DNA of 32,000 nucleotides from Candidatus Nanosynbacter sp. BB002 (GCF_037013405.1 NZ_CP146064.1:570001-602000); one strand, 5' to 3'; shown: positions 260 through 28,288, counted from the stretch's first letter. A program made the numbers and translations. The notes: generated from the letters alone by a model not told the origin.

Positions 260-610
260 TCAGGAACAACCACCGTCACTCACGTCTGAGCTCTTACTAG
301 TGATGTGCATTTTTTGAGAACCACGTGTCGCCTCAATACAGAACTCTTTCCCATCAGCACCCTGGATGTATACATGAACGGGGCCACCGTTATAATTTGG
401 TATTGATGCGCCAGCGGGTAGTGTTGGATAGGCATTGTGAAAATTGCGGTATTGCTCCATAGCCTGCGCTGCACTTTTGAGGTCAGCCGTGATAGCATCG
501 CGCAATGACTTCTGGCGCCAATTGCCGTAGCTGATAATTCCGATAGTGGTCAAAATGGCTATGACTGATATCATAACAAGCACTTCTATAATAGTAAAAC
601 CGCGTTTCAT
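260..610 (-). CDS. Type IV pilin / pseudopilin-like protein (prepilin-type N-terminal cleavage/methylation domain)
   Basis: ORF 260..628; the best start is ATG 610 (MKRGFTIIEVLVMISVIAILTTIGIISY). This is a class III signal peptide: short basic leader, G|F cleavage site, Glu at +5 and a hydrophobic helix of about 20 residues. Two C-terminal Cys (EFCIEA, GGCS) fit a disulfide-bonded pilin D-region. Confidence 0.8.
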   Translation of the reverse strand: MKRGFTIIEVLVMISVIAILTTIGIISYGNWRQKSLRDAITADLKSAAQAMEQYRNFHNAYPTLPAGASIPNYNGGPVHVYIQGADGKEFCIEATRGSQKMHITSKSSDVSDGGCS

Positions 611-616
611 ATTGTT

Positions 617-625
617 AGTATAGCA
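617..625 (-). promoter_or_regulatory. Extended -10 element (TGcTATACT) 6 nt upstream of the pilin ATG
   Basis: The minus strand reads TGCTATACT-aacaat-ATG, with no Shine-Dalgarno in the gap. It sits in the 23-nt spacer after the uvrC stop. Confidence 0.45.
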
Positions 626-633
626 CAAGCGTT

Positions 634-2247
634 TTAGTTATTGGTACGCTGTGCCGTAATATATTTGTGGACGATTTGAGCACGCGACTGGCCAATCACC
701 GACGCTAGGTCATCTTCTGTGGCACTGACAACATTACGGAAGCTACCAAATTTTTTCAGCAATTTAGCGCGAGTTTTTGGCCCAATGCCAGGAATTTCCT
801 CTAGCTGATTTTTCGTTTGCTGCTGACGCTTCAGCGCCGTGTGATAACTCACGGCAAAGCGGTGCGACTCGTCACGGATGCGCTGAAACAGTTTGACGAT
901 GTCAGTTGTCGCAAGGGTATTCTCGTCCGCCGTCGGGCGTTCGTTGCGAGTTTGCTCCATGCTAGCTCGTAAGTTTTTTGAGTGCGAACTGGCGTTACGC
1001 TGGCCTGGGTGTAAATTCACCACATAAACCTCACCGTCTTCATGGATAGCGATGTCCGCCCGCGGCTGCGACTGAGCCTGCTCAATAAACGTGGTATCAA
1101 TCTGCGAACCAGTCTTGTGCACTAATAATTCTTCCTCGCGCTTGACGATGCTGATGATCGGCACAGTGACGCCACGCTCATCACGCGCTTTGATAGCCGC
1201 CGCTAGCTGGCCTTTGCCGCCATCAATCAGCAGCAGATCAGGACGACCCCAGCTTTTTAGATGACGCTCACTCAGCCGGCGAAAAATCGTCTGATAGATA
1301 TTGCCGGTATCATCATTTCTCTCGCTAACTTTGAATTTGCGGTACTCTGCCCGGTCGCTCGCGCCATTGGTAAATACCACCATACTGGCGACAACTTGCT
1401 GGCCGCTCATATGCGAAATGTCATAGCCCTCGATGCGTGCTGGGATACCGTTTAGGCTCAACAATTTTGCCAAATCAGCCAGCGCCTTGTCTTTAGAAAT
1501 ATCCAAAAATTCTTTGTCGCCAAAACAAACCCGCCGCTGCAACTCCTGCATGGCGCGTAGCTTATTGCGAAGATCAGCCGCCCGCTCAAAATCATGCAGC
1601 CCAGCTGCCGTTTTCATGTCGCGCTCCAGCTCAGCAGCGATGGCTTTACGATTACCCTTGATGTAGCTGATGAGTTTGCGTAAATTAGTTTTGTAGATAG
1701 CCGATCCATCACTCAGTCGCGGGCTCAAACCTAAATCTTCATCCAACTTCGACTGCCCCGGACGGCGCTGCCTAGTTAAATAGGGAAACACCCGCCGCAA
1801 ATATCGCAAGGCTTTTTTCAAAGCAAAGCCATTATAAAACGGGCCAATGTATTCCGCACTGTCATCAGCTGGATTACGCGTAAAGCTGACGGTCGGCCAC
1901 TCACTTTTCATGTCGATTCGCACATACATCTGCGATTTATCATCGCGTAGCAGTACGTTGTATCGCGGCATATAGCGCTTGACCATCTCGCTTTCCAGAA
2001 ACAAGGCATCAACTTCGCTTTCAGTCTCAATCCAATCCGTATCAGCGATTTCCGCCACCAACGCCATGGTTTTATTGTCCCGCCCACGCGAATCTTGAAA
2101 ATACTGACGCACGCGGTTTTTCAGCACCGCCGCCTTGCCCACATAAATAATCTCACCGCCGGCTGACTTATGAAAATAAACGCCCGGGGTGCGTGGTAGA
2201 GTTTTGAGCTTGGCTTGCAATGGTTGATTCACCTTTTTATTATACAT
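634..2247 (-). CDS. uvrC: Excinuclease ABC subunit C (UvrC)
   Basis: 537 aa. N-terminal GIY-YIG motif (GVYFHKSAGGEIIYVGKAAVLKNRVRQY), UvrC endonuclease core, and a C-terminal helix-hairpin-helix (LEEIPGIGPKTRAKLLKKFGS). Confidence 0.95.
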   Translation of the reverse strand: MYNKKVNQPLQAKLKTLPRTPGVYFHKSAGGEIIYVGKAAVLKNRVRQYFQDSRGRDNKTMALVAEIADTDWIETESEVDALFLESEMVKRYMPRYNVLLRDDKSQMYVRIDMKSEWPTVSFTRNPADDSAEYIGPFYNGFALKKALRYLRRVFPYLTRQRRPGQSKLDEDLGLSPRLSDGSAIYKTNLRKLISYIKGNRKAIAAELERDMKTAAGLHDFERAADLRNKLRAMQELQRRVCFGDKEFLDISKDKALADLAKLLSLNGIPARIEGYDISHMSGQQVVASMVVFTNGASDRAEYRKFKVSERNDDTGNIYQTIFRRLSERHLKSWGRPDLLLIDGGKGQLAAAIKARDERGVTVPIISIVKREEELLVHKTGSQIDTTFIEQAQSQPRADIAIHEDGEVYVVNLHPGQRNASSHSKNLRASMEQTRNERPTADENTLATTDIVKLFQRIRDESHRFAVSYHTALKRQQQTKNQLEEIPGIGPKTRAKLLKKFGSFRNVVSATEDDLASVIGQSRAQIVHKYITAQRTNN

Positions 2248-2263
2248 TTTTCTAGGCTAGTAA

Positions 2264-2272
2264 TGTTACAAT
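2264..2272 (+). promoter_or_regulatory. Extended -10 element (TGtTACAAT) 7 nt upstream of the HAD gene ATG
   Basis: Reads TGTTACAAT-tagtaat-ATG(2280) with no SD. It lies in the 32-nt divergent spacer shared with uvrC. Confidence 0.4.
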
Positions 2273-2279
2273 TAGTAAT

Positions 2280-2909
2280 ATGTCGCAGACGAAAAACCCA
2301 CACCACTCCATCAAAGCCATCGTCTTTGATCTTGATGGTGTGTATTTCAACAAAGGCAAGGCTGAATTCCTGAGCAGCCTCACACGCTACGGCGTTGAGG
2401 AAGCGAGCGCCAAGTCGGTCTTTCTGACGAGTCAGCACATGGCTGATTATAAACTGGGGAAAATCGATGACAATGAATTCTGGACGTGGGCAGAATCGCA
2501 GTGGCATACAGGCCTGTCTAATCATGAGCTTATAGAGCTGATGCTTGATGGCTATGTGATAGATGAACGCGTTGCGCAACTGGCGACAAGGGTTCAACAT
2601 GCGGGCTACAAAACATTGATCTGCTCCAATAATTTTCCAGCTCGTATCAACGGCCTGGAGAGAAAGTTTGGTTTTCTACAGCAATTTGATACAGCAGTTT
2701 TCTCATATCAAGTTCATGCCGCTAAACCGTCAACCGAGATTTTCGCCGAATTGCTGCGTCGCTCTGGTCGCCAACCACAAGAGATAGTCTACGCTGATGA
2801 CAAGCCAACTGCACTCACTGGTGCGAAGGATCTTGGCATTAACACACTGGTTTATACTGATTTTGATACATACCGTGACGACCTCCAAGAGCTGGGAATT
2901 ATTTTATGA
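2280..2909 (+). CDS. HAD-superfamily hydrolase (subfamily IA-like)
   Basis: 209 aa. Motif I IVFDLDGVYF (DxDG), motif II-like LICSNN, and a C-terminal K...YADDK acidic motif. Confidence 0.85.
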   Translation: MSQTKNPHHSIKAIVFDLDGVYFNKGKAEFLSSLTRYGVEEASAKSVFLTSQHMADYKLGKIDDNEFWTWAESQWHTGLSNHELIELMLDGYVIDERVAQLATRVQHAGYKTLICSNNFPARINGLERKFGFLQQFDTAVFSYQVHAAKPSTEIFAELLRRSGRQPQEIVYADDKPTALTGAKDLGINTLVYTDFDTYRDDLQELGIIL

Positions 2910-2923
2910 TATCGCAACCGGGT

Positions 2924-3283
2924 TTAATGCCAGCCTAGCAGTTCAGTGAACGACTTCTGCGCGCTAACACATTCACCCAACTCAATGCTCGTAACTGGCA
3001 AAGTAATATTATGCGCGAGCAACAATCTGCGCACTTCTTCCTGTTTGTTATATGGCACCTCTATGTGCGAGATATCAGTGATAGCTATTCGCTTGTCGGC
3101 ACGCGCTTCGTAGTAACGCATTGGTTTTTCTAACTCTACTTGTGAAGCAAGGTGCTTAATGCCAATGAGTATTGGATAGTTACCAGGAATATCACTACCT
3201 AAACAAAAGATATCCCACACATCACGCGCCTGTCTATTCACCTTCTTACCCCATGTGTTGTCACCATGTTCATCATGCGACAA
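2924..3283 (-). CDS. Hypothetical protein (119-aa ORF, TTG start); possibly the out-of-frame 3' continuation of the fragment upstream
   Basis: An open frame only, with no motif I recognise. It overlaps the 3273..3542 ORF by 11 nt in a different frame. The first in-frame ATG is far internal. Confidence 0.35.
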   Translation of the reverse strand: MSHDEHGDNTWGKKVNRQARDVWDIFCLGSDIPGNYPILIGIKHLASQVELEKPMRYYEARADKRIAITDISHIEVPYNKQEEVRRLLLAHNITLPVTSIELGECVSAQKSFTELLGWH

Positions 3284-3542
3284 GCTGCGCCATGTTTTCC
3301 AGCACCGCCTGGCTTAGTCCGCCAAACACTTTTGCCTGCGTCATGATATTTACTGCGTTCGTTAATTTCTCTGCCTGCGCCTTGCCGACCAATTTGTAAT
3401 CATCAACGTCATGCAGCCAAGCCGTCAACAGCACTTCTTGCAAATCCACTGGCTCACTGCACTCGCTAGCAAAACGCTCTGCCAGCAGCGCCAGAACCGG
3501 CGTGGGTATTGAACGGAATGATTGTTTTGCCGACAAAGTCAT
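3273..3542 (-). CDS. 89-aa ORF fragment with an HD-like signature (LLTAWLHDVDDYKL); probably a gene remnant
   Basis: It contains an LHDVDD motif resembling the HD dyad of HD-domain phosphohydrolases, but lacks the upstream His. An in-frame stop lies 3 codons above its ATG. Its 5' part overlaps the flavodoxin fragment in another frame. Confidence 0.3.
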   Translation of the reverse strand: MTLSAKQSFRSIPTPVLALLAERFASECSEPVDLQEVLLTAWLHDVDDYKLVGKAQAEKLTNAVNIMTQAKVFGGLSQAVLENMAQLVA

Positions 3543-5657: not shown

Positions 5658-6422
5658 CTACACGCCAAATGAACAAAATCTTATCACATCAACCACTATA
5701 TGTGCACCTATGGCCGAACTAACATCGCGCTTTCGTTGCATGACGGCAAACGGCAGACCAAACAATAGCGCCAACGCCAGGACGCTACCCAGCGCAAAAT
5801 TAGCTGTATTAAAATGAAGCAAGACGTGAGGCAATATCATAACGAGATAGCACAAAAAATTATCTAATTTTGACAGTAATCTATCCTTAATGAAATAGAT
5901 GCACGTAGCAAAGAAAAAGAAGCGGAAAATAATTTCTTCCGAAATACCAGCACGCATGGCGTTTAAGAACCATTCTGGCTTGAGCGAAAAAGCAATATTC
6001 CAAGAAATTTTTGCCAGGAGAATATTGACGGTTCCCAGCGCCAATCCTACCAATAGGGCAAGGCAAATTGTTTTTAGTATTTCTTTTTTGTTGACCATTT
6101 TACAGAGGACAATTGCATGCTTACTTTTCTTGAGCACACTAACACCTCCAACATACGCAACAGCAGAGCACACTCCCATGAACATACTGGATGGTGCAGC
6201 CAGACAGCCTAAAATTACAGCAATGATAACATCAGTTCTAGAAACATTTTTGTTCCTTACGATAAATAAAACTGCCAATAAAACAACAACCAAAAACCAC
6301 AGGATGTTAAGCTTTTGTGGATTTAGTAACGTTATCGACCACAGCGCCACAAAAAAGAGGTTGATACCGAGCAGTACTCGTGTTGAAGATCGGTGTAAAA
6401 CTACAGCATGTTCTTGACTCAT
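5658..6422 (-). CDS. CPBP-family intramembrane glutamic protease (CAAX protease / Abi-like)
   Basis: 254 aa, polytopic. Motif 1 EEIIFRFFFF (EExxxR), motif 2 LPHVLLHF (FxxxH-like) and a distal GAHIVVD. Confidence 0.8.
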   Translation of the reverse strand: MSQEHAVVLHRSSTRVLLGINLFFVALWSITLLNPQKLNILWFLVVVLLAVLFIVRNKNVSRTDVIIAVILGCLAAPSSMFMGVCSAVAYVGGVSVLKKSKHAIVLCKMVNKKEILKTICLALLVGLALGTVNILLAKISWNIAFSLKPEWFLNAMRAGISEEIIFRFFFFATCIYFIKDRLLSKLDNFLCYLVMILPHVLLHFNTANFALGSVLALALLFGLPFAVMQRKRDVSSAIGAHIVVDVIRFCSFGV

Positions 6423-8384: not shown

Positions 8385-11300
8385 TTAGCGTCGGCGTTTG
8401 ATGATTATCCAGGCGCCAGTAGCAACGACCGCGATGGAACCGAGAGTGATTACGATGGCGTTACTACCCGTGTCAGCTAGTGCATTTGATGCTTTCTTCG
8501 CAATCTTAGCAACTGGGTTGTTGCCGCCACTATTGGCATTTTGGTTACCATTCTGAGTAGCGTCCTCTTCTTCGTAAATACCAACTGGGTCGATGATAGT
8601 GCCGTTTGCTATACCGTCACCGTCACCAAAGCCGCCGTCAGTCAAATCATAAGCAATAGTGGTGTATTTGCCATCTGGCGTATTACCAAAGGTAACTCGG
8701 CTGGTGATGTCTTGGTATACTCGACCATTCATTATCTTACCAATTGTCAGACGGTTCGTGTTAGCATAGCGACGACTTAATGTTAAGGTTACGCGAGCTG
8801 TAAAGCCAACCGCAGGAGCTTGGTTGTTACAGTTAATCGTGAAGTCCACTCCTTCGCGAAGCACACGGTTATTGTAGCGATCCGGCGTTGAAGCTGTCTG
8901 TGCTGTCGCCAAGTTGTAACAAGAGTTTCCAGATGTCTCTAATGTCAAAGAACGGTGATATGGCTGTGCAACAGTCATCTTGTTCCGTGGAGCCTGAGGT
9001 CCCGGGATGACAATTGCATTCAACCGATTTTCCAGTGCAGTTCTCTTAGCGGTATCCTGTACGTTTGCCACCAAAGCTCTTGCGGCATTCACTGCAGCTT
9101 GAGTTTTGCTACTTTCAGCCTGAGCAACTGCTTGTTCAGCGGCTGTTTGGGCGTCTGCTTCCTTCTTCTTGGCGTTAGTTACTGCCGTGTTGAGGTCGTT
9201 GGCTGCTTTCTGGATGGCAGTAGCAGCTGGGTTTGGTTGCTTCTCTACTTCTTTGGCTTTGGCGAGAGCTTGCTTGACGGTAGCGTCATTGGTAATGTAG
9301 GCCGGTTCTTTCTCGGCGTTGGCGATGGCGGTGCGGAGGGCAGACAGGTCAGGACGGAGGGCGTCAAGTTTTGCTTGCAGAGCTGCTTTGGCAGCGTTGA
9401 GCTCGGCAACAGAAGCACCGGCGTTGGCAGCAACCTGCTCTGCTTGGGTGACTTGTGCTGCTACGGCGTCCTTGGTTTCTTGGGACATGCCGGCAGTGGT
9501 TGCTGGGTCTTTGGCCTTGGTTATCAGGGCGGAGAGAGCGTTGCGAGCAGCGGTGACGTTAGCGGTTACCTGGTTGAGGCGATCCTGGAAGGCTTGTTTC
9601 TTCGTTGGGTCTTGGACGGCAGCTACCTTGGCGTTGGCGCTGGTAACATCGTCTGGATCCTGGTTGTGTTCAGCCTGAGCAACTGCTTGTTCAGCGGCTG
9701 TTTGGGCGTCTGCTTCCTTCTTCTTGGCGTTAGTTACTGCCGTGTTGAGGTCGTTGGCTGCTTTCTGGATGGCAGTAGCAGCTGGGTTTGGTTGCTTCTC
9801 TACTTCTTTGGCTTTGGCGAGAGCTTGCTTGACGGTAGCGTCATTGGTAATGTAGGCCGGTTCTTTCTCGGCGTTGGCGATGGCGGTGCGGAGGGCAGAC
9901 AGGTCAGGACGGAGGGCGTCAAGTTTTGCTTGCAGAGCTGCTTTGGCAGCGTTGAGCTCGGCAACAGAAGCACCGGCGTTGGCAGCAACCTGCTCTGCTT
10001 GGGTGACTTGTGCTGCTACGGCGTCCTTGGTTTCTTGGGACATGCCGGCAGTGGTTGCTGGGTCTTTGGCCTTGGTTATCAGGGCGGAGAGAGCGTTGCG
10101 AGCAGCGGTGACGTTAGCGGTTACCTGGTTGAGGCGATCCTGGAAGGCTTGTTTCTTCGTTGGGTCTTGGACGGCAGCTACCTTGGCGTTGGCGCTGGTA
10201 ACATCGTCTGGATCCTGGTTGTGTTCAGCCTGAGCAACTGCTTGTTCAGCGGCTGTTTGGGCGTCTGCTTCCTTCTTCTTGGCGTTAGTTACTGCCGTGT
10301 TGAGGTCGTTGGCTGCTTTCTGGATGGCAGTAGCAGCTGGGTTTGGTTGCTTCTCTACTTCTTTGGCTTTGGCGAGAGCTTGCTTGACGGTAGCGTCATT
10401 GGTAATGTAGGCCGGTTCTTTCTCGGCGTTGGCGATGGCGGTGCGGAGGGCAGACAGGTCAGGACGGAGGGCGTCAAGTTTTGCTTGCAGAGCTGCTTTG
10501 GCAGCGTTGAGCTCGGCAACAGAAGCACCGGCGTTGGCAGCAACCTGCTCTGCTTGGGTGACTTGTGCTGCTACGGCGTCCTTGGTTTCTTGGGACATGC
10601 CGGCAGTGGTTGCTGGGTCTTTGGCCTTGGTTATCAGGGCGGAGAGAGCGTTGCGAGCAGCGGTGACGTTAGCGGTTACCTGGTTGAGGCGATCCTGGAA
10701 GGCTTGTTTCTTCGTTGGGTCTTGGACGGCAGCTACCTTGGCGTTGGCGCTGGTAACATCGTCTGGATCCTGGTTGTGTTCAGCCTGAGCAACTGCTTGT
10801 TCAGCGGCTGTTTGGGCGTCTGCTTCCTTCTTCTTGGCGTTAGTTACTGCCGTGTTGAGGTCGTTGGCTGCTTTCTGGATGGCAGTAGCAGCTGGGTTTG
10901 GTTGCTTCTCTACTTCTTTGGCTTTGGCGAGAGCTTGCTTGACGGTAGCGTCATTGGTAATGTAGGCCGGTTCTTTCTCGGCGTTGGCGATGGCGGTGCG
11001 GAGGGCAGACAGGTCAGGACGGAGGGCGTCAAGTTTTGCTTGCAGAGCTGCTTTGGCAGCGTTGAGCTCGGCAACAGAAGCACCGGCGTTGGCAGCAACC
11101 TGCTCTGCTTGGGTGACTTGTGCTGCTACGGCGTCCTTGGTTTCTTGGGACATGCCGGCAGTGGTTGCTGGGTCTTTGGCCTTGGTTATCAGGGCGGAGA
11201 GAGCGTTGCGAGCAGCGGTGACGTTAGCGGTTACCTGGTTGAGGCGATCCTGGAAGGCTTGTTTCTTCGTTGGGTCTTGGACGGCAGCTACCTTGGCGTT

Positions 11301-14300
11301 GGCGCTGGTAACATCGTCTGGATCCTGGTTGTGTTCAGCCTGAGCAACTGCTTGTTCAGCGGCTGTTTGGGCGTCTGCTTCCTTCTTCTTGGCGTTAGTT
11401 ACTGCCGTGTTGAGGTCGTTGGCTGCTTTCTGGATGGCAGTAGCAGCTGGGTTTGGTTGCTTCTCTACTTCTTTGGCTTTGGCGAGAGCTTGCTTGACGG
11501 TAGCGTCATTGGTAATGTAGGCCGGTTCTTTCTCGGCGTTGGCGATGGCGGTGCGGAGGGCAGACAGGTCAGATTTTGGCAGTGTTGCAGTCACGTGTAG
11601 TGTTCCAGAGAAAGCAAACGGCTTACCATTGATAGTTATCTGCTTGTTCCAGTTGGCCTGCAACGCATGCGGTTGACCGTCATATACTGGTGCCGCCACT
11701 TTTAATTTACCAGCTGCTTCATTGACCAAAGTGGCCGTATTCTCAATGGCAATTGGCGCGCCAGCTGCATCCTTCAAAGGCGAGCTGAACACTTCAGACT
11801 CAGTAGTCATACTACCCTGCTGGTTTTCTAGCTTCAAAGAGGTAAGGTGGTTCAAACCCGCGAGAGGCTGTGCATTCATGATCGTACTGTAGTCTAACCG
11901 CAGTTCAGTAAGTTGAGTCATTCGTCCAATTGCAGCAATCTCATCCTCGCTCAGCTGCCCCCCAGTCAAGCGCAAAGAGGTCAGAGCCGGTGCACCAACA
12001 AGAGATTGAGCATTGACAACTTTAGTCTTTCGGCCATAGTCATAGAAAGAGATTTTCTTTAGCGAGTTTTTACTACCTGCAAATGTTGATAGGTCTAACG
12101 TCTGATTGGTACCGCTCATCGAGACTTGCTCGAGCTTGTTCAGAGACGACAAAGGACTATAGTTCGTAACAACATTTTCCGACAAGTTCACACTACGCAA
12201 CTCAGACAAGCCAGCCAGCGGTTGAATATCAGCAACCTTGTTGCCTGACAGCTGTAATGCGCGCAATTTAGTTAGGCCAGAGAGCGGCTGTAAATTGGTA
12301 ATTGCGTGATTGCCGAGTGATAGCTCAGTGACATTTTTAGCGTACTCCAGACCAGTCAAATCCTTAATCCTCTGGTCTTCCGTGATATTGCCAGTATTAT
12401 CGACATACATGCGATCAATGGTTAGCATTTCTTGAGCAGTAATCGCTTGAGCATCACTACGGGTTTTCCCTGAGATTTCAGCTAACCTCTTGTTCAACAA
12501 CTGGCGCAACCTGGCATCAGGGATGTTAACGCCCTGCGCTGCCGGAGGCTGTGGAGGTGTCGGAGAATTGGTTGAATCCATATAAGCATTTACCAAAGCA
12601 CCTCGGTTTACCGCCACACCAGGCCTTACGTGTTGGCCGCTTGGGTCAATTGCTGATGCAACCTCAGCTGACAATGGCTTACCTGAACCAATCGCCGGAC
12701 TGCCTGCCTTCAAGTTGTAGTTACTCTTACGGTAGTCGGTGTTCTGTTCAGCTTCTTTGATGAAGTATGGGTTGTTTGCGCGTGTACCAAACAGGTCGAA
12801 CGAGTGGGTGTCGCGACCATCAATTGACGACCTTACGCGGCTATCTTTAGCGATGTCTTTCACATTAGCAAACAAAATATCAAGGCGGTTCGGCACATCC
12901 GCTAAGTCCCAGGTCATGATCGTGCCTTCATTTTGCAAGCTACTGCGGTAGTAGGCGTTGTAGTCAAAGCCCTTGAACATGTCATTTGTATAGGTGCCTG
13001 GACCAGTGTGGTTTGGGCCACCAGTGCTCCTAACAGGGTAGGACCACAGTGGCGCGCCAGTGTCACCAGAGATGACTGCACGAGATGAGATGATGTTATT
13101 GTACATCTCTAGACCAGTCAAGTTCCAGCTCAGACCCTTGCCAGCAGACCACGACTCGAGCGATTTACAAATTTGTGGATTATTACGATCTCGCTCATTA
13201 CAACCGTCAGTACGAGCATCCTCATTCAGCATGATAGGTCGGTTGGTTCGAGAGATAGTGTTATTGTATACTTTGGAGTTCGAACTACTCGATACGCCAA
13301 TACCCGCACCCGAGCCCTCAATAATGTTTGATGCGATGATTGTGCCATCTGAAACCTCATCAAAGATCGCTGTTGTCGTGTTGATGAAGAAGTTGTTGAC
13401 AATTTTTGCTTTGATGCAGCCTTCATCACACCAGACACCCGCTGTACCATTGCGCACATAATAGTCGTTGCCAGTTGAAGCAGGATTCTTTGAGTTATCA
13501 ACCACATTACCTCGGAACGTAAAGTTCTCAATGTGCGTCACTTTTATCTCAGAAACAGTACACCACGCCAAACAGACTGAACCATTGGTCAGATAATTTG
13601 CTGCGTTGTTCTCTGTAAAGATGTTATTTTCAAATGTTGTATTGTGCGCACGGTTAGCTCCTGCACCATTACCACCATTGCCGATAAATTTGTTATTAAC
13701 GATGCGCGCACCTTGTGCATCAGTATTGAAACCGACTGAGGAGCTTTGCGTAAAGATAGAGTCTTGGACGACTGAGCCACGACCATTTACCACGATCATA
13801 CTGGTCCCAACCTGATCTTCGGCCAAGTCACGATCCCAAGACCAACTCTGTACTGGTGAGTACTGTGCAACATTGATAGCTTTCATCGTGAAATTAGAGC
13901 CATCATCAGCCTGACGACCACCAACAGAGAAAGCGCGTGCTCGGTTGGTAATCTCTGTAGTACCGCTAGATGGGTCAGAGCCAACATAATATGTCAAATC
14001 ATCTTCTGTGCCAACGTTAAAGCCTGCTCGATTATTTGTTGGATCTTTCAAAGTAGTTGGGTTTTTGTCTTCAACGTAAAACTTTCCAGGGCCAACCTTG
14101 TTTTTTGCATCGACTTGTTCCAGTGGTTGATCGTCGATAAACATCTGCTCTGGGTAAGCAGCCATACCTTCTTTGGATGGGTTGGGGTTGACCGTACAAA
14201 CACGACAGAAATTACGGAATTTACCCGTAGTCTTCCACATGTTGCCTTCTTTAGTCCATCGATCTGCCGATACAATATCGCTACCCTTCATCCAGACTTC

Positions 14301-14669
14301 AGCATGAGGGGCAGCCTGGAAGGTAATATTTTTCTTCGTGACAAAGAAATGCGGCTCTCGGTAAGCGCCGCTCTTAGCTACAACCGTTCCTCCATCAGAA
14401 ACAGCCTGTAAGCCTCGCCTAAAGGTCGCGAACGGTCGCGCTTCGGTACCATTCCCAGAATTGTCATTACCATCTGGCGAAATCCATGCCACATTGGTTG
14501 TCGGCACTGGATAGTTGGTATCCATCGCTTTATATTTTTTGTGGACACTAGCCGCTTTTGCCATAAACGGACTTGTTAGAACCAACGCGAAAACCATCAC
14601 AACCGCAGCTGCTGGTATCGCTAGTTTGGCGACACGTTGATTCCTTCTTGATATACGAAGACGTACCAT
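8385..14669 (-). CDS. Giant (2094 aa) secreted, cell-wall-anchored surface protein: signal peptide, right-handed beta-helix, LRR, helical tandem-repeat stalk, C-terminal beta domain, LAXTG sorting signal
   Basis: A single uninterrupted ORF. The N-terminus MVRLRISRRNQRVAKLAIPAAAVVMVFALVLTSPFMAKA|AS is Sec-type. See the sub-features for domains. SD GGAGAGGGAG lies upstream. Confidence 0.9.
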   Translation of the reverse strand: MVRLRISRRNQRVAKLAIPAAAVVMVFALVLTSPFMAKAASVHKKYKAMDTNYPVPTTNVAWISPDGNDNSGNGTEARPFATFRRGLQAVSDGGTVVAKSGAYREPHFFVTKKNITFQAAPHAEVWMKGSDIVSADRWTKEGNMWKTTGKFRNFCRVCTVNPNPSKEGMAAYPEQMFIDDQPLEQVDAKNKVGPGKFYVEDKNPTTLKDPTNNRAGFNVGTEDDLTYYVGSDPSSGTTEITNRARAFSVGGRQADDGSNFTMKAINVAQYSPVQSWSWDRDLAEDQVGTSMIVVNGRGSVVQDSIFTQSSSVGFNTDAQGARIVNNKFIGNGGNGAGANRAHNTTFENNIFTENNAANYLTNGSVCLAWCTVSEIKVTHIENFTFRGNVVDNSKNPASTGNDYYVRNGTAGVWCDEGCIKAKIVNNFFINTTTAIFDEVSDGTIIASNIIEGSGAGIGVSSSSNSKVYNNTISRTNRPIMLNEDARTDGCNERDRNNPQICKSLESWSAGKGLSWNLTGLEMYNNIISSRAVISGDTGAPLWSYPVRSTGGPNHTGPGTYTNDMFKGFDYNAYYRSSLQNEGTIMTWDLADVPNRLDILFANVKDIAKDSRVRSSIDGRDTHSFDLFGTRANNPYFIKEAEQNTDYRKSNYNLKAGSPAIGSGKPLSAEVASAIDPSGQHVRPGVAVNRGALVNAYMDSTNSPTPPQPPAAQGVNIPDARLRQLLNKRLAEISGKTRSDAQAITAQEMLTIDRMYVDNTGNITEDQRIKDLTGLEYAKNVTELSLGNHAITNLQPLSGLTKLRALQLSGNKVADIQPLAGLSELRSVNLSENVVTNYSPLSSLNKLEQVSMSGTNQTLDLSTFAGSKNSLKKISFYDYGRKTKVVNAQSLVGAPALTSLRLTGGQLSEDEIAAIGRMTQLTELRLDYSTIMNAQPLAGLNHLTSLKLENQQGSMTTESEVFSSPLKDAAGAPIAIENTATLVNEAAGKLKVAAPVYDGQPHALQANWNKQITINGKPFAFSGTLHVTATLPKSDLSALRTAIANAEKEPAYITNDATVKQALAKAKEVEKQPNPAATAIQKAANDLNTAVTNAKKKEADAQTAAEQAVAQAEHNQDPDDVTSANAKVAAVQDPTKKQAFQDRLNQVTANVTAARNALSALITKAKDPATTAGMSQETKDAVAAQVTQAEQVAANAGASVAELNAAKAALQAKLDALRPDLSALRTAIANAEKEPAYITNDATVKQALAKAKEVEKQPNPAATAIQKAANDLNTAVTNAKKKEADAQTAAEQAVAQAEHNQDPDDVTSANAKVAAVQDPTKKQAFQDRLNQVTANVTAARNALSALITKAKDPATTAGMSQETKDAVAAQVTQAEQVAANAGASVAELNAAKAALQAKLDALRPDLSALRTAIANAEKEPAYITNDATVKQALAKAKEVEKQPNPAATAIQKAANDLNTAVTNAKKKEADAQTAAEQAVAQAEHNQDPDDVTSANAKVAAVQDPTKKQAFQDRLNQVTANVTAARNALSALITKAKDPATTAGMSQETKDAVAAQVTQAEQVAANAGASVAELNAAKAALQAKLDALRPDLSALRTAIANAEKEPAYITNDATVKQALAKAKEVEKQPNPAATAIQKAANDLNTAVTNAKKKEADAQTAAEQAVAQAEHNQDPDDVTSANAKVAAVQDPTKKQAFQDRLNQVTANVTAARNALSALITKAKDPATTAGMSQETKDAVAAQVTQAEQVAANAGASVAELNAAKAALQAKLDALRPDLSALRTAIANAEKEPAYITNDATVKQALAKAKEVEKQPNPAATAIQKAANDLNTAVTNAKKKEADAQTAAEQAVAQAESSKTQAAVNAARALVANVQDTAKRTALENRLNAIVIPGPQAPRNKMTVAQPYHRSLTLETSGNSCYNLATAQTASTPDRYNNRVLREGVDFTINCNNQAPAVGFTARVTLTLSRRYANTNRLTIGKIMNGRVYQDITSRVTFGNTPDGKYTTIAYDLTDGGFGDGDGIANGTIIDPVGIYEEEDATQNGNQNANSGGNNPVAKIAKKASNALADTGSNAIVITLGSIAVVATGAWIIIKRRR
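8388..8480 (-). other. Sortase sorting signal, LAXTG type (LADTG + hydrophobic span + KRRR tail)
   Basis: The C-terminal 31 aa are LADTG-SNAIVITLGSIAVVATGAWIII-KRRR. LADTG is encoded at 8480..8466 (cta gct gac acg ggt). Confidence 0.8.
9114..11572 (-). repeat. Tandem coding repeat, period 555 bp (185 aa), 4.43 copies, apparently 100% identical at nucleotide level
   Basis: Identity starts at 9114 (ttcagcc) and ends at 11572. Repeat landmarks fall at 9116, 9671, 10226 and 10781. All translated frames in the ORF track repeat letter-for-letter (62-aa and 119-aa shadow ORFs x4, plus the 881-aa shadow ORF). The unit is DLSALRTAIANAEKEPAYITNDATVKQ...AALQAKLDALRP. Confidence 0.95.
11815..12533 (-). 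other. Leucine-rich repeat (internalin-like, ~22-residue LRR) region of the giant protein; boundaries approximate
   Basis: Repeating LxxLxxLxLxxNxIxxIxPL units: LTGLEYAKNVTELSLGNHAITNLQPLSGLTKLRALQLSGNKVADIQPLAGLSELRSVNLSENVVTNYSPLSSLNKLEQVSMSG... Confidence 0.8.
12570..14492 (-). other. Right-handed parallel beta-helix (pectate-lyase-fold / PbH1-repeat) region of the giant protein; boundaries approximate
   Basis: Typical entry motif ISPDGNDNSGNGTEARPFATFRRGLQAVSDGGTVVAKSGAYRE. Further on there are Asn/Gly-rich coils (IVNNKFIGNGGNGAGANRAHNTTFENNIFTENNAANY, KVYNNTISRTN, EMYNNIIS). Confidence 0.7.
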
Positions 14670-18426: not shown

Positions 18427-18810
18427 ATGCGAAGGTTGAGTGTTTACTTACTACTAATTATTGGTGCAGTTTTCATCACACCCATACTTTTCGACCAGCT
18501 TTGCATGTTCGTGTTTCTTGGCAAGCTTCCGTTTTTGAACGTTAATTTGTCAGCTAATTCCATGATTATTTTCTGGATCGCCCTTGTGCCAATCTGCCGC
18601 ATTTTGCGAGCAGCCATTCCGGTATCATTTGACGATATCAAAGAACTCATCCAATACATTTCCCGAAAACACATAAACAACAGCGTGTTGTACCAGAGCC
18701 ATGATCTAACCTTGCTATTTATCTATCTGACGCATGAAACCAAGAAAGCAAAAACGAGCGAGCCAGACACCCCTATGGGCGCCCAAAAGCTTGCTCCATC
18801 TTTAACCTAA
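18427..18810 (+). CDS. Hypothetical small membrane protein
   Basis: ORF 18358..18810; the ATG at 18427 gives [32 protein letters not shown]..., with two predicted TM helices. No recognisable family. Its 3' end overlaps the convergent sbcB stop by 4 nt. Confidence 0.4.
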
Positions 18811-20219
18811 ACGATAGGCAGCACCGCTTCTACCCACAACTGTAGTTCCTGTAAAATGAACTGCTGTTCGTCGGTCGCTGTCGGCGCCAAACGCTGCAAG
18901 GCTGCCATAAATTGCGGTAGTTGCGTCTGCAGGCGCTGAGCCCGCCACGTTTCCCACTGCGCCAGGTCATCTTCGCTGAGTGAGCGCGGAAAGTTGCGGG
19001 CTTTGTAGTGGAGTAATAATGGCGTCAACCGCTCGTCCTGAAATTCTGGATGAAAATCAGCTAGCTCGCGCTCATCGGCATTGCGTACCGCTTCTACCCG
19101 CAGGCGGTCACGGTCGTTCAAAAAGCCATCATATAACTGTGCTTCTGGATCGGGCAGTTTTTTGAAGGCTGGCTTGTTTTCAAAAATAGTCCGTAATTTT
19201 TCGGCAAAGTCCGGATGATTCAGTAAGATGTGTTGATGCTGCTGAATAGTCTCTGTACTAAGCGAAATTTTCTGCCAGCCATCACCTTGTTCCAGCACAC
19301 CCAGCGGCGCCACCGCCGGACAACGATTGTATTGTAATTCTTTGACCGGTAATTTGACGAAATACTCAGCTTGCCGCTCCTCCCACGAGGCAAATAGTTT
19401 TGCTGACAATTCCTCCACGCTCAGCCCAACAAACGGCGTTGGATCGTACCGCAGGTCATAGACAACCACGCCACCGTTTCGACTGGTTGTCAGTGGAAAA
19501 GCCACCGTGGTTTTAGCAAATTCTTTATCGTAACGCCCGCTGGCGTAAACAAACGGTTTTTTGTCGTCCACATTGACCAGCTGCTGGACTACTTTTTTGT
19601 CACGCATTTTTAGTAAATAGTCATACAGCTGCGGCTGTTTTTGCTTGATCAATTTCGTCACGGCAATCAGCGCCGTTACGTCCGCCAAGGCGTCATGGGC
19701 ATTTTCGTGCGCAATACCGTTGGCGCTGGTGATCAATTCCAAGCGGTTACTTGGCTCACCTTTAGCATCAAGTGGCCACTTGATCCCCTCTGGCCTGAGT
19801 GCCCTGGTCAGTCGCACCACATCCAGCATATCCCAACGCGATCGACCTTCCTTCCAGCTCCATTCATACGGGTCATGAAAATTACGCCACAACAAATGGC
19901 GAATGAACTCATCGTCAAATCGAATATTATTAAAGCCAACCGCAATAGTATCCGGCGTGAAAATCTCCTCGCTGAGCATCCGCGTAAACTGCGCCTCGCT
20001 GTAGCCTTCCTCGACCGTTTTTTGCGGCGTGATGCCGGTTACCATCAGCGCATCAGGACTCGGCAGTGTATCATCATTCAGCGTCACCAGCAAATTGTAC
20101 GGCTCGCCAATCGGCTCAAGGTTCATATCCGTCCGCTGCCCAGCAAACTGCATGATGCGGTCTTGCCGCGGATTCAGCCCGCTGGTTTCGAGGTCGTAGA
20201 AGAAGAATGTTTGCGCCAT
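18807..20219 (-). CDS. sbcB: Exodeoxyribonuclease I (ExoI)
   Basis: 470 aa, collinear with E. coli SbcB. Shared segments include TFFFYDLETSGLNP..DRIMQFAGQRTD (Exo I motif), GFNNIRFDDEF, YDPYEWSW..GRSRWDMLDV.R...ALRPEGI.WP, HDALADV, NRCP..AP, and a C-terminal LLHYKARNFP. Confidence 0.93.
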   Translation of the reverse strand: MAQTFFFYDLETSGLNPRQDRIMQFAGQRTDMNLEPIGEPYNLLVTLNDDTLPSPDALMVTGITPQKTVEEGYSEAQFTRMLSEEIFTPDTIAVGFNNIRFDDEFIRHLLWRNFHDPYEWSWKEGRSRWDMLDVVRLTRALRPEGIKWPLDAKGEPSNRLELITSANGIAHENAHDALADVTALIAVTKLIKQKQPQLYDYLLKMRDKKVVQQLVNVDDKKPFVYASGRYDKEFAKTTVAFPLTTSRNGGVVVYDLRYDPTPFVGLSVEELSAKLFASWEERQAEYFVKLPVKELQYNRCPAVAPLGVLEQGDGWQKISLSTETIQQHQHILLNHPDFAEKLRTIFENKPAFKKLPDPEAQLYDGFLNDRDRLRVEAVRNADERELADFHPEFQDERLTPLLLHYKARNFPRSLSEDDLAQWETWRAQRLQTQLPQFMAALQRLAPTATDEQQFILQELQLWVEAVLPIV

Positions 20220-25013: not shown

Positions 25014-25410
25014 AGTGTACCTCCAAATAATCCTGCAAAATGATGCTGGCAGCCTCAGCGTCAATCTCACCTTTATCTTTAACGCGACCTAACCGACGTT
25101 CAGCTTCAACGCTACTGAGCGACTCATCTTGATAAACCAGCTCAGCATCAAGCTCAATCTCAGAAAAACCATCAACAAACTGCTCTACAAAAGCTGTCTG
25201 TTTGGTTGGTTCGCCCGACTGATTGCGCGGATAGCCAACGACAATGATGTCAATATCATGACGTAATACTGTTTCCGCCAACTTGGTAAAAATCTCATCA
25301 TTATTCTCCAGCCAACCAAACGGCACAGCGATTCTGACTGAGGTATCAGCCATAGCCAAACCAATTCGTCGTTCACCGACGTCTAGTGCCAGCAAATTCT
25401 TACCGGCCAT
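25000..25410 (-). CDS. ruvX: Holliday-junction resolvase-like / pre-16S rRNA nuclease RuvX (YqgF)
   Basis: 136 aa. LLALDVGERRIGLAMAD, IIVVGYPRNQSGEPT, DESLSSVEAE. It overlaps the mltG start by 14 nt and the upstream gene's end by 11 nt. Confidence 0.92.
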   Translation of the reverse strand: MAGKNLLALDVGERRIGLAMADTSVRIAVPFGWLENNDEIFTKLAETVLRHDIDIIVVGYPRNQSGEPTKQTAFVEQFVDGFSEIELDAELVYQDESLSSVEAERRLGRVKDKGEIDAEAASIILQDYLEVHYADS

Positions 25411-27025
25411 TATCCAATTTAAATTCTATACTAATATGTTTGTCATTATTTGGCACAGTGCGTACCCAAAACGGTGAGAATTTCGTATCAACATCTTGCA
25501 CGCCTTCAATTGATTCAAGGCTAGACTGGACATCACCATAGTTCCGACCTTTTACCTGCTCCTTGACTTTGTGCTCATCAATCTCTGGGCCAATCTTTGC
25601 ATTTGCTGTTAATCGAACTTGCACGGCATTGTTGCGCTCACTGTACTGCGCAAATTTTACCTCATTAGACCCATCATTATAGATCTTCTGGTTCTTCTTG
25701 CTACCAATCTCTTTCTTGAGCGTGTCCTCCAAGAACTGCTTCATATCAGAGCGATCAATACCCTGCATACTGGCTGTCACCGTTGTTTTCAACTGAACTG
25801 TACCACTGGCTTCATGGTCAACCGCCACTGAAGGCGTAGGGTTTGAGCGAGCCTCTTGGTAGCTTTCATTGATGACGATGCTTGAAGATGGGAATAGTGC
25901 TTTGACTGCTGATTGCAGTGAAGCGTCTTTTTGGGCGTCAAGCTTAACTTTAGCTTTGGCAACATCATCAGCCGACACCACAGTCACTTCCCGACTCGAG
26001 CCGCCACTCATTGCGGTGCCCGCCGCCGAAAAGCCGCTCACATTTGAAGAGTAGCTTCGTGACGATAGATTGTATTCACTACCAACCTGAGTTGCTTGCA
26101 CCTTGACGGTTGCCACCGATTGGATGACACCGCCAGGACCAATTGAGGTGCCCGACAAGCTGGCTGGCTCTGTGCTGACAAACGTATAATCGCCCGACGA
26201 GAAGGACGTTCCAGCCGGAATTGTTAGCGTCAAGCTTGATACCGATGTTCGAACAAGGTGCATCGTACCACTTGCTTTTTCACCAACCTTTTTCTTGCCC
26301 GTAGGAGTAAAATCAACAGAGATTTCTTTCTTTTGTTCTTGACGCAATGACTTGATGGTATTGTTAGCAGCATCAACTTTGCCATCTTGCTTTAATGTGA
26401 CTGATTTATCAACGGTAGAGGTGGTCGTTTTGGCTGTGATCACCACTGTAGCATGCGGCGCAAACCAAATCGCCCAAACCATGAACAGAACAAATAGAAC
26501 GATGCCGCCGCCAATCAAGACTAATTTTTTGCGGAAAACATTAAAATCTGGGACTTTTGGCTTACCTTTGCCTGCTGGCTTAGCAGGTTTTGCTGGCTTT
26601 GTTGGCTTTTCATCCTCGGCTATAGCTGCATCGATAGCATCATCAGCCTTATTTCGTGCTTTTGGCGTCACCTTATCAGCCAATTCACCGACCGGTATCT
26701 CACTACCGTCAATCACATCATCGCCATCATCAATATCGATGGCTGGAATTTCCGCAATCTCTGGGCGAGACTGCAATGTCTTGGCCACTGGGATGCGGGC
26801 TGCGGCTGCCAAACCACTGAGCGCCTGGTCACTGGTAATCAACACGATTCGCTTCTCGGCATTCTCCGCCGCACGATTTAACAATCTCATATTGACCGCG
26901 CTCTGCAATATACCAACCCGTTTAGGAGGCACCAATGCAACGATACGCGCCTTTGAATCTTTTATCTTGCTGACGATGTTGGTGATATCGTCTTCAACAT
27001 CGATATAGATAACGTCTTTGTTCAT
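25400..27025 (-). CDS. Bitopic membrane protein of unknown function (541 aa): conserved-looking ~95-aa cytoplasmic N-domain, acidic then Lys/Pro-rich linker, one TM, ~340-aa Ser/Thr/Val-rich ectodomain
   Basis: N-domain: MNKDVIYIDVEDDITNIVSKIKDSKARIVALVPPKRVGILQSAVNMRLLNRAAENAEKRIVLITSDQ. Linker: KPTKPAKPAKPAGKGKPKVP. TM: LVLIGGGIVLFVLFMVWAIWFAP. The ectodomain segment ASGTMHLVRTSVSSLTLTIPAGTSFSSGDYTFVSTE...VKVQATQVGSEYNL recalls regions sometimes labelled baseplate-J-like; this rests on memory only and is low confidence. The ATG follows the ftsA-like TAA directly. Confidence 0.75.
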   Translation of the reverse strand: MNKDVIYIDVEDDITNIVSKIKDSKARIVALVPPKRVGILQSAVNMRLLNRAAENAEKRIVLITSDQALSGLAAAARIPVAKTLQSRPEIAEIPAIDIDDGDDVIDGSEIPVGELADKVTPKARNKADDAIDAAIAEDEKPTKPAKPAKPAGKGKPKVPDFNVFRKKLVLIGGGIVLFVLFMVWAIWFAPHATVVITAKTTTSTVDKSVTLKQDGKVDAANNTIKSLRQEQKKEISVDFTPTGKKKVGEKASGTMHLVRTSVSSLTLTIPAGTSFSSGDYTFVSTEPASLSGTSIGPGGVIQSVATVKVQATQVGSEYNLSSRSYSSNVSGFSAAGTAMSGGSSREVTVVSADDVAKAKVKLDAQKDASLQSAVKALFPSSSIVINESYQEARSNPTPSVAVDHEASGTVQLKTTVTASMQGIDRSDMKQFLEDTLKKEIGSKKNQKIYNDGSNEVKFAQYSERNNAVQVRLTANAKIGPEIDEHKVKEQVKGRNYGDVQSSLESIEGVQDVDTKFSPFWVRTVPNNDKHISIEFKLDNGR

Positions 27026-28288
27026 TTATATTTTAAGTAATCGATTAATTTTATCCATTAAGCCATTAGCATCTTGGCCACTTACCATTGTATCATATCC
27101 TACGCGCAGCAAGCCCATCGCTGTCACAAATGTGTGGTCAGTGATATCACCTGTTGTATCAGTAATGCCGACCACCTCAGACGGTTTGATGCGCTGAACT
27201 ACTGGCTTCTTTGTGAATGGTAGCTCCTTATACCACGGCTCACTCCCCAAAGCGTCAACCAATTTTTCCAAACTGGCGCCTCCACCACACAGTAAAATCC
27301 TATTTGGCAAATGATCAACACTATCAAACTCGCTTAATGCCAACTCTACCCCGGACAGCCATACCTCAAGGGTCTTATCAATCGCACTATCAAGCCGTTT
27401 CTTGACCGACGGCTTGACGTACTCATGACCAAGATTGAGTTTTAATTTTTCAGCATCTTTATAACTGAGATCAAGCTCCGTGGCAATTGTTCTAGTGAAA
27501 CTGCGACCACCGATGCCAAACATCCTGGTGCCTTCCACGCCACCGTCATTGACCACGGCAATGTCGGTCGTTCCACCACCAACGTCTGCTAAAATTGCAG
27601 TAAATGAACTATTGGCATCTGTCCCCAGCACGCTTCTACTGACCGCAAATGGCTCAGCCGCTACCGCTATCAGCTCTAGCGCCAACTCATCAGCCACCTT
27701 TTCCAGCGCACCGATGTGCACCATTGGCGCAAACGCCGTATAGATCTGCACTGCCACGTCTTTGCCCTGAAAACCGATTGGATTTGACACCTTATAGCCA
27801 TCAATGTGCAAGCTCACCAGGGCCGAGTTGACCAATTTCACTTCGACGTCTTCATTGCCAGTTTCCAGCGCGATCTGTGCTTGAGCTTTGCCTTGTGCTC
27901 GCTCCTGAACTTTTTCGATGATAAATTCCATCTCGGCAACGTCCAACGCTCGTTCTGGCTGCGGACGACGATAGCGGATGGTGTTCGTCATACCTTTGAC
28001 CAATTCTCCAGCGATGCCAATCACGACGCGTCGCGCTTGGACACCCGCCTTTTCCTCAGCTTCCGCCAAGGCTGCTTCACAGTTGGCAACTACGCCAGAT
28101 ATGTCGGCGATCGCTCCAGAGTGCATATCGCCCAGCTCTTGCTGCTTGCGACCAACACCAATCACTTCGATGACATCATTTCGCACTTCAGCGATCAAAG
28201 CCTTAACAGCTTCTGTACCAATATCTAGACTAACTAGTAGATCTCGTTCTTCTTTGTCGGTTTTTTTGAGCAAGTCTTTTAGTACCAT
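27026..28288 (-). CDS. ftsA: FtsA-family actin-like ATPase with C-terminal amphipathic helix
   Basis: 420 aa. Phosphate-1 LVSLDIGTEAVKALIAEV; IGVGRKQQELGDMHSGAIADISG; AEEKAGVQARRVVIGIAG; phosphate-2/adenosine ILADVGGGTTDIAVVNDGG...FGIGGRSFTRTIA...YKDAEKLK. The C-terminal GLMDKINRLLKI resembles the FtsA membrane-targeting helix. No ftsZ is adjacent. Confidence 0.75.
   Translation of the reverse strand: MVLKDLLKKTDKEERDLLVSLDIGTEAVKALIAEVRNDVIEVIGVGRKQQELGDMHSGAIADISGVVANCEAALAEAEEKAGVQARRVVIGIAGELVKGMTNTIRYRRPQPERALDVAEMEFIIEKVQERAQGKAQAQIALETGNEDVEVKLVNSALVSLHIDGYKVSNPIGFQGKDVAVQIYTAFAPMVHIGALEKVADELALELIAVAAEPFAVSRSVLGTDANSSFTAILADVGGGTTDIAVVNDGGVEGTRMFGIGGRSFTRTIATELDLSYKDAEKLKLNLGHEYVKPSVKKRLDSAIDKTLEVWLSGVELALSEFDSVDHLPNRILLCGGGASLEKLVDALGSEPWYKELPFTKKPVVQRIKPSEVVGITDTTGDITDHTFVTAMGLLRVGYDTMVSGQDANGLMDKINRLLKI

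Follow-up and report, generated by a model that had tools for sequence, protein, structure and literature searches.

The stretch analysed here (hereafter the window) comprises 32,000 nucleotides (nt) of Candidatus Nanosynbacter sp. BB002 (GCF_037013405.1 NZ_CP146064.1:570001-602000). Its minus strand carries a gene for a large surface protein in which a unit of 555 base pairs (bp), encoding 185 amino acids (aa), is repeated in tandem with perfect identity. From the N- to the C-terminus the protein is arranged as signal peptide, beta-helix, leucine-rich repeat (LRR) domain, repeat stalk, choice-of-anchor U domain and LADTG anchor (Table 1).

A perfect tandem array in a surface-protein gene

When the window is compared base by base with a copy of itself shifted by 555 nt (lag 555), a single perfect run of 1904 nt (9114..11017) results, so that the repeated tract extends over 2459 bp, or 4.43 x 555 bp, with zero mismatches. 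The original prediction had claimed this extent and copy number, complete identity among the copies and sharp borders at 9113/9114 and 11572/11573, all of which the comparison reproduces exactly. A self-match of this length cannot have arisen by chance. Beyond the tract, identity at the same lag reaches 0.5-0.7 over the roughly 90 nt that precede 9114 and is otherwise at a background of about 0.25. A repeat search returns five copies at a spacing of 555, of which four are 100% identical and one, the fifth, has 86% identity over 300 nt, and the junction motif occurs four times in the window, again 555 nt apart, and not once in 100 shuffles. Tandem Repeats Finder does not call the array, its longest period being 500 (<555), and the lag-555 comparison was used in its place. 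The array is built in tandem from an A segment of 240 nt, present in five identical copies, and a B segment of 315 nt, present in four, likewise identical. As 555 equals 3 x 185, gain or loss of a unit always preserves the reading frame. Over the interval 9001..12000 the GC content is 0.54-0.57, against about 0.47 in the flanks, with a plus-strand GC skew of +0.13 to +0.24 and AT skew of -0.23 to -0.45, a compositional shift in keeping with the amino-acid and codon bias of the repeat.

Opposite the array, the plus strand contains an open reading frame (ORF) of 881 aa (8955..11600) and four identical ORFs of 119 aa (9319..9678, 9874..10233, 10429..10788 and 10984..11343). It is nevertheless extremely unlikely that the repeat is not coding in its own right, whether as a mobile element, a non-coding array or a plus-strand gene. 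Although these long stop-free frames span the array, they merely repeat with it and have no independent support, and they were rejected as antisense shadows, as was the mobile-element or non-coding reading. The minus frame, by contrast, is continuous with flanking domains of significant family match, and the unit is conserved at the protein level in homologs down to 46% identity. Differences between genomes are mostly synonymous in the minus frame, and the AlphaFold2 model of the encoded segment reaches a mean predicted local distance difference test (pLDDT) of 96.5.

At its N-terminus the protein reads as a basic n-region followed by a hydrophobic core, with probable cleavage between AKA and AS; A39 and A40 are near-invariant in the family alignment. 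The beta-helix region, which matches Beta_helix PF13229 at 33.9 bits (cutoff 25.9) and NosD PF05048 at 29.8 bits (cutoff 23.6), forms a putative head domain for glycan binding or cleavage, and the family profile of the adjoining LRR domain matches Internalin A with E = 4e-62, along with further internalins. Towards the C-terminus, the match to NF041766 (42.1 bits, E = 1.1e-10) lies above the curated cutoff of 32 bits. L2064, T2067 and G2068 of the LADTG motif are invariant across 12 homologs, and the NCBIfam LPXTG_anchor score of 14.3 bits falls slightly below its cutoff of 15.9. With a signal-like N-terminus and a C-terminus made up of LADTG, a hydrophobic segment and KRRR, the protein is predicted to be attached to the cell surface, and the beta-helix and internalin-like LRR domains, N-terminal of the stalk, would be its distal functional domains.

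Table 1. Features of the surface-protein gene, and contigs of related genomes that end or start within its repeat array (positions in the window)
Feature	Position or contig	Strand	Basis
Whole surface-protein gene, 2094 aa	8385..14669	-	ORF list, translation
Predicted Sec-type signal peptide, aa 1-39	14553..14669	-	read from sequence
Right-handed beta-helix region, ~aa 43-702 (limits approximate)	12564..14543	-	Pfam
Internalin-like LRR domain, ~aa 715-960	11790..12527	-	Pfam LRR_4 PF12799, LRR_8 PF13855
Array, 4.43 identical 555-bp units	9114..11572	-	lag-555 identity, repeat search, junction motif
Codon-aligned full units, aa 1034-1773	11016..11570, 10461..11015, 9906..10460, 9351..9905	-	lag-555 identity
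Terminal partial module, aa 1774-1888 (A1 + variant A2')	9006..9350	-	phmmer, alignment
Terminal module, array-identical part	9114..9350	-	lag-555 identity
Choice-of-anchor U domain, aa 1950-2031	8577..8822	-	NCBIfam NF041766
Sortase-type sorting signal: LADTG (8466..8480), hydrophobic segment, KRRR tail	8388..8480	-	read from sequence
Contigs stopping 55 nt into the array (five)	L018-L022		
Contig stopping at the end of A (one)	L015		
Contigs stopping one unit + 55 nt in (four)	L005, L006, L009, L010		
Contigs stopping at the last base of the second A (three)	L084, L085, L089		
Contigs starting at the first array base (two)	L086, L090		
NCBI fragment stopping 23 residues into the array	RKV96427.1		

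Family history of the unit and concerted evolution of its A segment

The unit of the window differs from the units of 12 complete relatives at 19-29 of 555 nt, versus none within the window array. Only 3-7 of these differences change an amino acid, which indicates that the unit is under purifying selection, and divergence between species appears to proceed at roughly the rate of ordinary coding DNA. The 1904 compared positions show 0 differences, which limits divergence between adjacent copies to less than about 0.16% (95% Poisson bound), amounting to a few per cent of what separates the species. The same contrast is found in the relatives themselves. In each of the 12 genomes the two 240-nt A segments, which open the unit and the terminal module respectively, match each other exactly, whereas between genomes there are nine A haplotypes among the 12 relatives, 1-11 differences apart (median 7). 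Identity within and difference between genomes point to concerted evolution of the A segment in these relatives, independent of copy number, and such evolution requires repeated recombination between copies. The recent expansion or homogenisation proposed in the original prediction agrees with both the undiverged units of the array and the concerted A segments.

Full-length homologs, at 46-96% identity, are found in Saccharibacteria metagenome-assembled genomes (MAGs), where the order of the surrounding genes is conserved. Of the protein clusters, the nearest (P0001; 96% identity, 170 members) includes RKV96427.1, named 'Candidatus Saccharimonas sp.', and a scan of one genome per species yields 80 loci, many from oral samples and all but one in Saccharibacteria or Nanosynbacter MAGs. 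At the closest loci the flanks are 91-93% identical to the window DNA, and these loci therefore represent sister species, not strains. The one locus outside this group (L081, CALHWB010000005.1) lies in a MAG labelled 'uncultured Propionibacterium sp.' and encodes a protein homologous to the N-terminal beta-helix region at 56% identity; it is probably due to binning contamination by a Saccharibacteria contig, and transfer between host and epibiont could also account for it.

A phmmer search for the unit gives between one and three full units in homologs (1.43, 2.43 or 3.43 copies), and the last match in every homolog covers unit positions 1 to about 115-152. The more distant clades have a period of 552 bp and copies about 65% identical at the DNA level, so that the family also contains old, diverged arrays of 1.43-3.43 units. 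Because the gene lies on the minus strand, the partial copy at 9114 is the C-terminal one. This copy had been described as switching at AEQAVAQAE into a diverged sequence, and the minus-strand translation does read AEQAVAQAE followed by SSKTQAAVNAARALVANVQDTAKRTALENRLNAI, as against HNQDPDDVTSANAKVAAVQDPTKKQAFQDRLNQV in the internal copies. In the terminal module, the first 79 aa have been homogenised together with the array, and the last 36 aa (9006..9113) form a distinct subtype, 'KTQ/KTAQ' in the alignment, which the whole family conserves. At the DNA level, A2 of the internal copies and A2' of the terminal one are 47% identical, and the break at 9113/9114 coincides with this drop in homology. 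The further claim that an old, decayed unit flanks the array does not hold: alignment of the family points to an ancient and conserved terminal module, not a decayed remnant, because every family member ends in it, at positions 1 to about 115.

A homolog of 1172 aa (P0012), to which only about 34% of the query is matched and whose precomputed Pfam list contains no LRR, has two A1-A2 modules and no B segment and represents a shorter architectural variant of the adhesin.

Predicted fold of the stalk unit and likeness to known adhesins

The AlphaFold2 model, which covers unit 4 and the terminal module and uses an alignment of 11 family segments, is of high confidence and entirely helical. Its helices occupy positions 3-13, 17-20, 23-37, 43-81 (long), 84-94, 100-132 (long), 142-160 and 166-181, after which the pattern repeats. 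Read from the secondary-structure string, the 185-aa unit appears to consist of three three-helix bundles joined by shared long helices, in the apparent order FIVAR-like, GA-like and second FIVAR-like. The predicted helices cross segment boundaries, and the predicted stalk is rod-like, resembling the EbhA rod 2dgj. In a Foldseek search against the PDB, CAMP factors take ranks 1-3 and EbhA 2dgj rank 4 (probability 0.98, template modelling score, TM, 0.35-0.40), with staphylococcal 4kjm and Embp 6gv8 among the lower-ranked matches; the sequence profile of the unit has Embp 6gv8 as its first match, with a marginal E = 0.0022.

The Pfam FIVAR profile (PF07554, threshold 29.2 bits) passes its threshold in the homologs P0004 (42.3 bits, 7 stretches), P0005 (41.6 bits) and P0007 (34.4 bits), with 5-7 stretches per protein, and the best of these stretches (e.g. 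P0005 1021-1079) align to approximately the first 60 aa of the window's unit. The FIVAR-like unit start noticed in the original prediction is thus supported through the orthologous segment of these three proteins, the window's own unit being without a match. Given the helical model, the Foldseek and profile matches and the presence of FIVAR in homologs, the stalk would belong to the FIVAR/GA type, a 'string of three-helix bundles'. Pfam and NCBIfam coiled-coil matches on the isolated unit (SMC, DUF1664, TolA and others) were rejected as compositional noise.

The giant staphylococcal adhesins Ebh and Embp (2dgj, 4kjm, 6gv8), with FIVAR-GA repeats, are the most relevant structural matches, Embp 6gv8 also being the top match by sequence profile. 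Common to both sides are an all-helical stalk and apparent three-helix bundles with long shared helices, with FIVAR found in the homologs of the window protein. However, the similarity is weak by both the profile and the TM values, at 18% identity, and the unit measures 185 aa versus 126 aa. The window protein also has a beta-helix and LRR head, a C-terminal choice-of-anchor U domain and few, identical copies, whereas Ebh and Embp have dozens of diverged ones. The stalk appears similar in fold class to the 126-aa repeat family of Ebh/Embp, but is not a member of it. The Listeria internalins InlA and InlB are strongly matched in the LRR, and InlA is likewise LPXTG-anchored, but they have neither an N-terminal beta-helix nor a helical FIVAR-type stalk, and the similarity is confined to the LRR.

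A further likeness is to the Periscope Proteins, wall-attached single-chain proteins in which an N-terminal functional domain is carried on a rod-like stalk of highly identical tandem repeats. The number of these repeats is altered by homologous recombination, and short reads fail to resolve the arrays; examples are SasG/Aap, Rib/alpha C and Sgo_0707 (PMC8201768, PMC9704523). FIVAR (4kjm) and three-helix bundles are already among the Periscope stalk folds (PMC9704523). The window protein resembles this class as a single chain with an anchor motif, N-terminal functional domains and long, in-frame, DNA-identical repeats, in the homologous recombination proposed for it, and in that the array of its relatives is left open by short-read assemblies. 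Its 4.43 units of 555 bp (185 aa), at 100% identity, have the length of more than 50 residues and the very high DNA identity by which Periscope repeats are recognised. It differs in its host, a member of Saccharibacteria (Patescibacteria, or candidate phyla radiation, CPR), the known hosts being pathogens of the Firmicutes and Proteobacteria, and in its unit, a three-bundle composite of 185 aa, compared with domains of 50-165 residues in the review. Variation in repeat number between strains defines the class and is a prediction for the window gene. A literature search on repeat or sortase surface proteins in Saccharibacteria returned no description of such a protein; the biology is familiar in kind, and extends the Periscope Protein idea to Patescibacteria.

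Probable expansion, copy number and a possible role in epibiont contact

The array probably encodes a helical stalk that has expanded recently and been homogenised by recombination, belonging to a sortase-anchored fibrillar adhesin in an oral Saccharibacteria (TM7) epibiont. A rigid helical rod, as modelled, would hold the beta-helix and internalin-like LRR head off the cell wall, and its copies would be kept identical by homologous recombination, through unequal crossing-over or gene conversion. The substrate for this recombination would be the 240-nt A segment, present at every unit start and again in the terminal module. If the starting state had 1.43 copies, arranged L-A-B-A-R, whole A-B units would be gained or lost in frame whenever its two A segments exchanged unequally. 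Each new unit would copy the same B segment, leaving no divergence and needing no further mechanism, and homogenisation would end where the terminal A2' sub-segment loses homology. On such a mechanism, copy number may vary within populations, with length variation of the Periscope type.

The array could instead be real but static, a fixed-length spacer that arose in one recent triplication-type event and plays no part in length variation. This is unlikely, although variation within populations or between strains is so far a prediction and the stable, diverged arrays of distant homologs suggest that the family can work at fixed lengths. For the A segment to have evolved in concert in 12 or more related species, recombination must have occurred repeatedly, not once, and RecA-mediated unequal exchange, established for Periscope Proteins (PMC9704523), would find an ideal substrate in five A and four B segments that are identical and arranged in tandem.

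All 15 complete relatives have exactly 1.43 copies and a protein of 1539 aa, or 2094 - 3 x 185, and 1.43 copies is the minimal path through the de Bruijn graph loop of such a repeat. The relatives' contig names are of the SPAdes short-read type. As the assembly graph is the same for any n.43 copies, short-read relatives cannot give n, and the difference between 4.43 in the window and 1.43 in the relatives, which are other species, is confounded by short-read collapse. A further 16 contigs end exactly at the array borders (Table 1). The array had been flagged beforehand as a likely place of assembly collapse, a warning justified both by the 15 relatives on the minimal path and by the broken contigs. 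A contig of 1148 bp (P0027), considered as a repeat-only contig, was rejected as an N-terminal fragment without coverage information.

These assemblies also bear on the possibility that the window array is itself an artefact, the true locus having fewer (e.g. 1.43) or non-identical units and the remainder coming from over-expansion of the loop or smoothing during polishing. The uniform 1.43 copies of the complete relatives would agree with this, as would the lack of an exact database match for the window protein given below. Short-read assemblers, however, collapse repeat loops and do not expand them, and 1.43 is exactly the copy number to which collapse would lead. The contigs of 16 relatives break at the array borders, for instance 55 nt in, or one unit plus 55 nt, so the clade must truly possess an exact repeat no shorter than the k-mer. 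Since the A segments match within each genome yet differ between genomes, the perfect identity is best read as a genuine property of the locus. An artefact is therefore quite unlikely. We think that the count of 4.43 derives from long reads or coverage-based resolution, because assemblers do not normally expand loops, and it is presumably correct.

Several results weigh against a recently expanded, recombining adhesin stalk, or against parts of this reading. A two-junction DNA pattern (unit junctions 555 bp apart, with a middle anchor) has three matches in the window and none in 83 loci or in Joint Genome Institute (JGI) metagenome contigs, whereas a single-junction control pattern matches eight contigs; the clade is therefore represented in the collection only in a 1.43-copy or truncated form. 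No second genome with at least two full identical units was found among 16 protein clusters, the 83 loci and the JGI contigs. The 2094-aa protein of the window has no exact match among 15 billion proteins, which bears on the reliability of the 4.43 count, and the perfect identity could come in part from polishing with multi-mapping reads. As regards the fold, Pfam FIVAR has no match in the whole protein at E <= 0.1 and none in the isolated 185-aa unit even at E <= 10, and the Foldseek E-values are weak (0.06-0.1), as is expected for a long rod.

Cultivated Saccharibacteria attach to Actinobacteria, and several adhesins are needed for their epibiotic growth (PMC10633639); contact with the host possibly involves pili and then 'close-proximity cell-surface adhesins' (PMC11623550). 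The gene described here is a concrete candidate for such a contact factor, because every element of a variable-length fibrillar adhesin is present in it and it is conserved and syntenic in a clade of oral Saccharibacteria, and its head may bind the surface of an actinobacterial host. More tentatively, it is possible, though on balance doubtful, that in ultra-small Saccharibacteria epibionts a recombination-driven helical stalk of variable length sets the reach of the beta-helix/LRR head towards the actinobacterial host, in steps of 185 aa (an estimated 9 nm or so each, by analogy with Ebh), and that this variation is hidden by the collapse of short-read MAGs to 1.43 copies. If so, length variation could be one factor in host range or help the epibiont to evade host defences. 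Such concealment would be systematic, since nearly every public Saccharibacteria genome is a MAG assembled from short reads. About half of the relatives' assemblies are broken at the array and the other half follow the minimal path, so that MAG catalogues give a lower bound on repeat number, within the identical-repeat clade only.

The conserved gene order around the adhesin is YceG, LysM-CHAP, Obg, ExoI, UvrA, a VTT/DedA protein, the adhesin, an ABC transporter and thioredoxin, followed further on by UvrC and a pilin-like gene. The last of these, at 260..628 (minus strand), is a type IV pilin-like ORF with an N_methyl motif (ComP_DUS 26.2 bits, cutoff 27.3); it adjoins uvrC, and in relatives it is found at the corresponding place (L001 21049..21399). 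An ORF of 254 aa at 5658..6422 (minus strand), where GC content is low (0.40-0.42), is flanked by the ABC transporter and thioredoxin genes and contains an Rce1/CPBP-like intramembrane protease domain (PF02517, 29.1 bits). It is absent from this position in L001, L007 and L017, where about 740 bp are skipped, and the alignment is continuous in L004, L012, L013 and L014, a pattern indicating a presence/absence polymorphism among sister species.

A second variable islet is suggested at about 2232..3289, which contains an ORF of 209 aa at 2280..2909 (plus strand; HAD-type hydrolase-like by eye) and another at 2924..3283 (minus strand) without a Pfam match. This interval aligns in L012 and L013 and is unaligned in L001, L004, L007 and L017, which have only about 430 bp there. 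At about 18810..18816, between the ExoI-like and UvrA genes, L004, L012, L013 and L014 contain approximately 1.77 kb of extra DNA that the window is without. Further along the window, an ORF of 541 aa at 25400..27025 (minus strand) shows a weak match to Baseplate_J (E = 2.8e-4, 20.7 bits, cutoff 21.1), and next to it lies another large ORF, of 420 aa, at 27026..28288 (minus strand).

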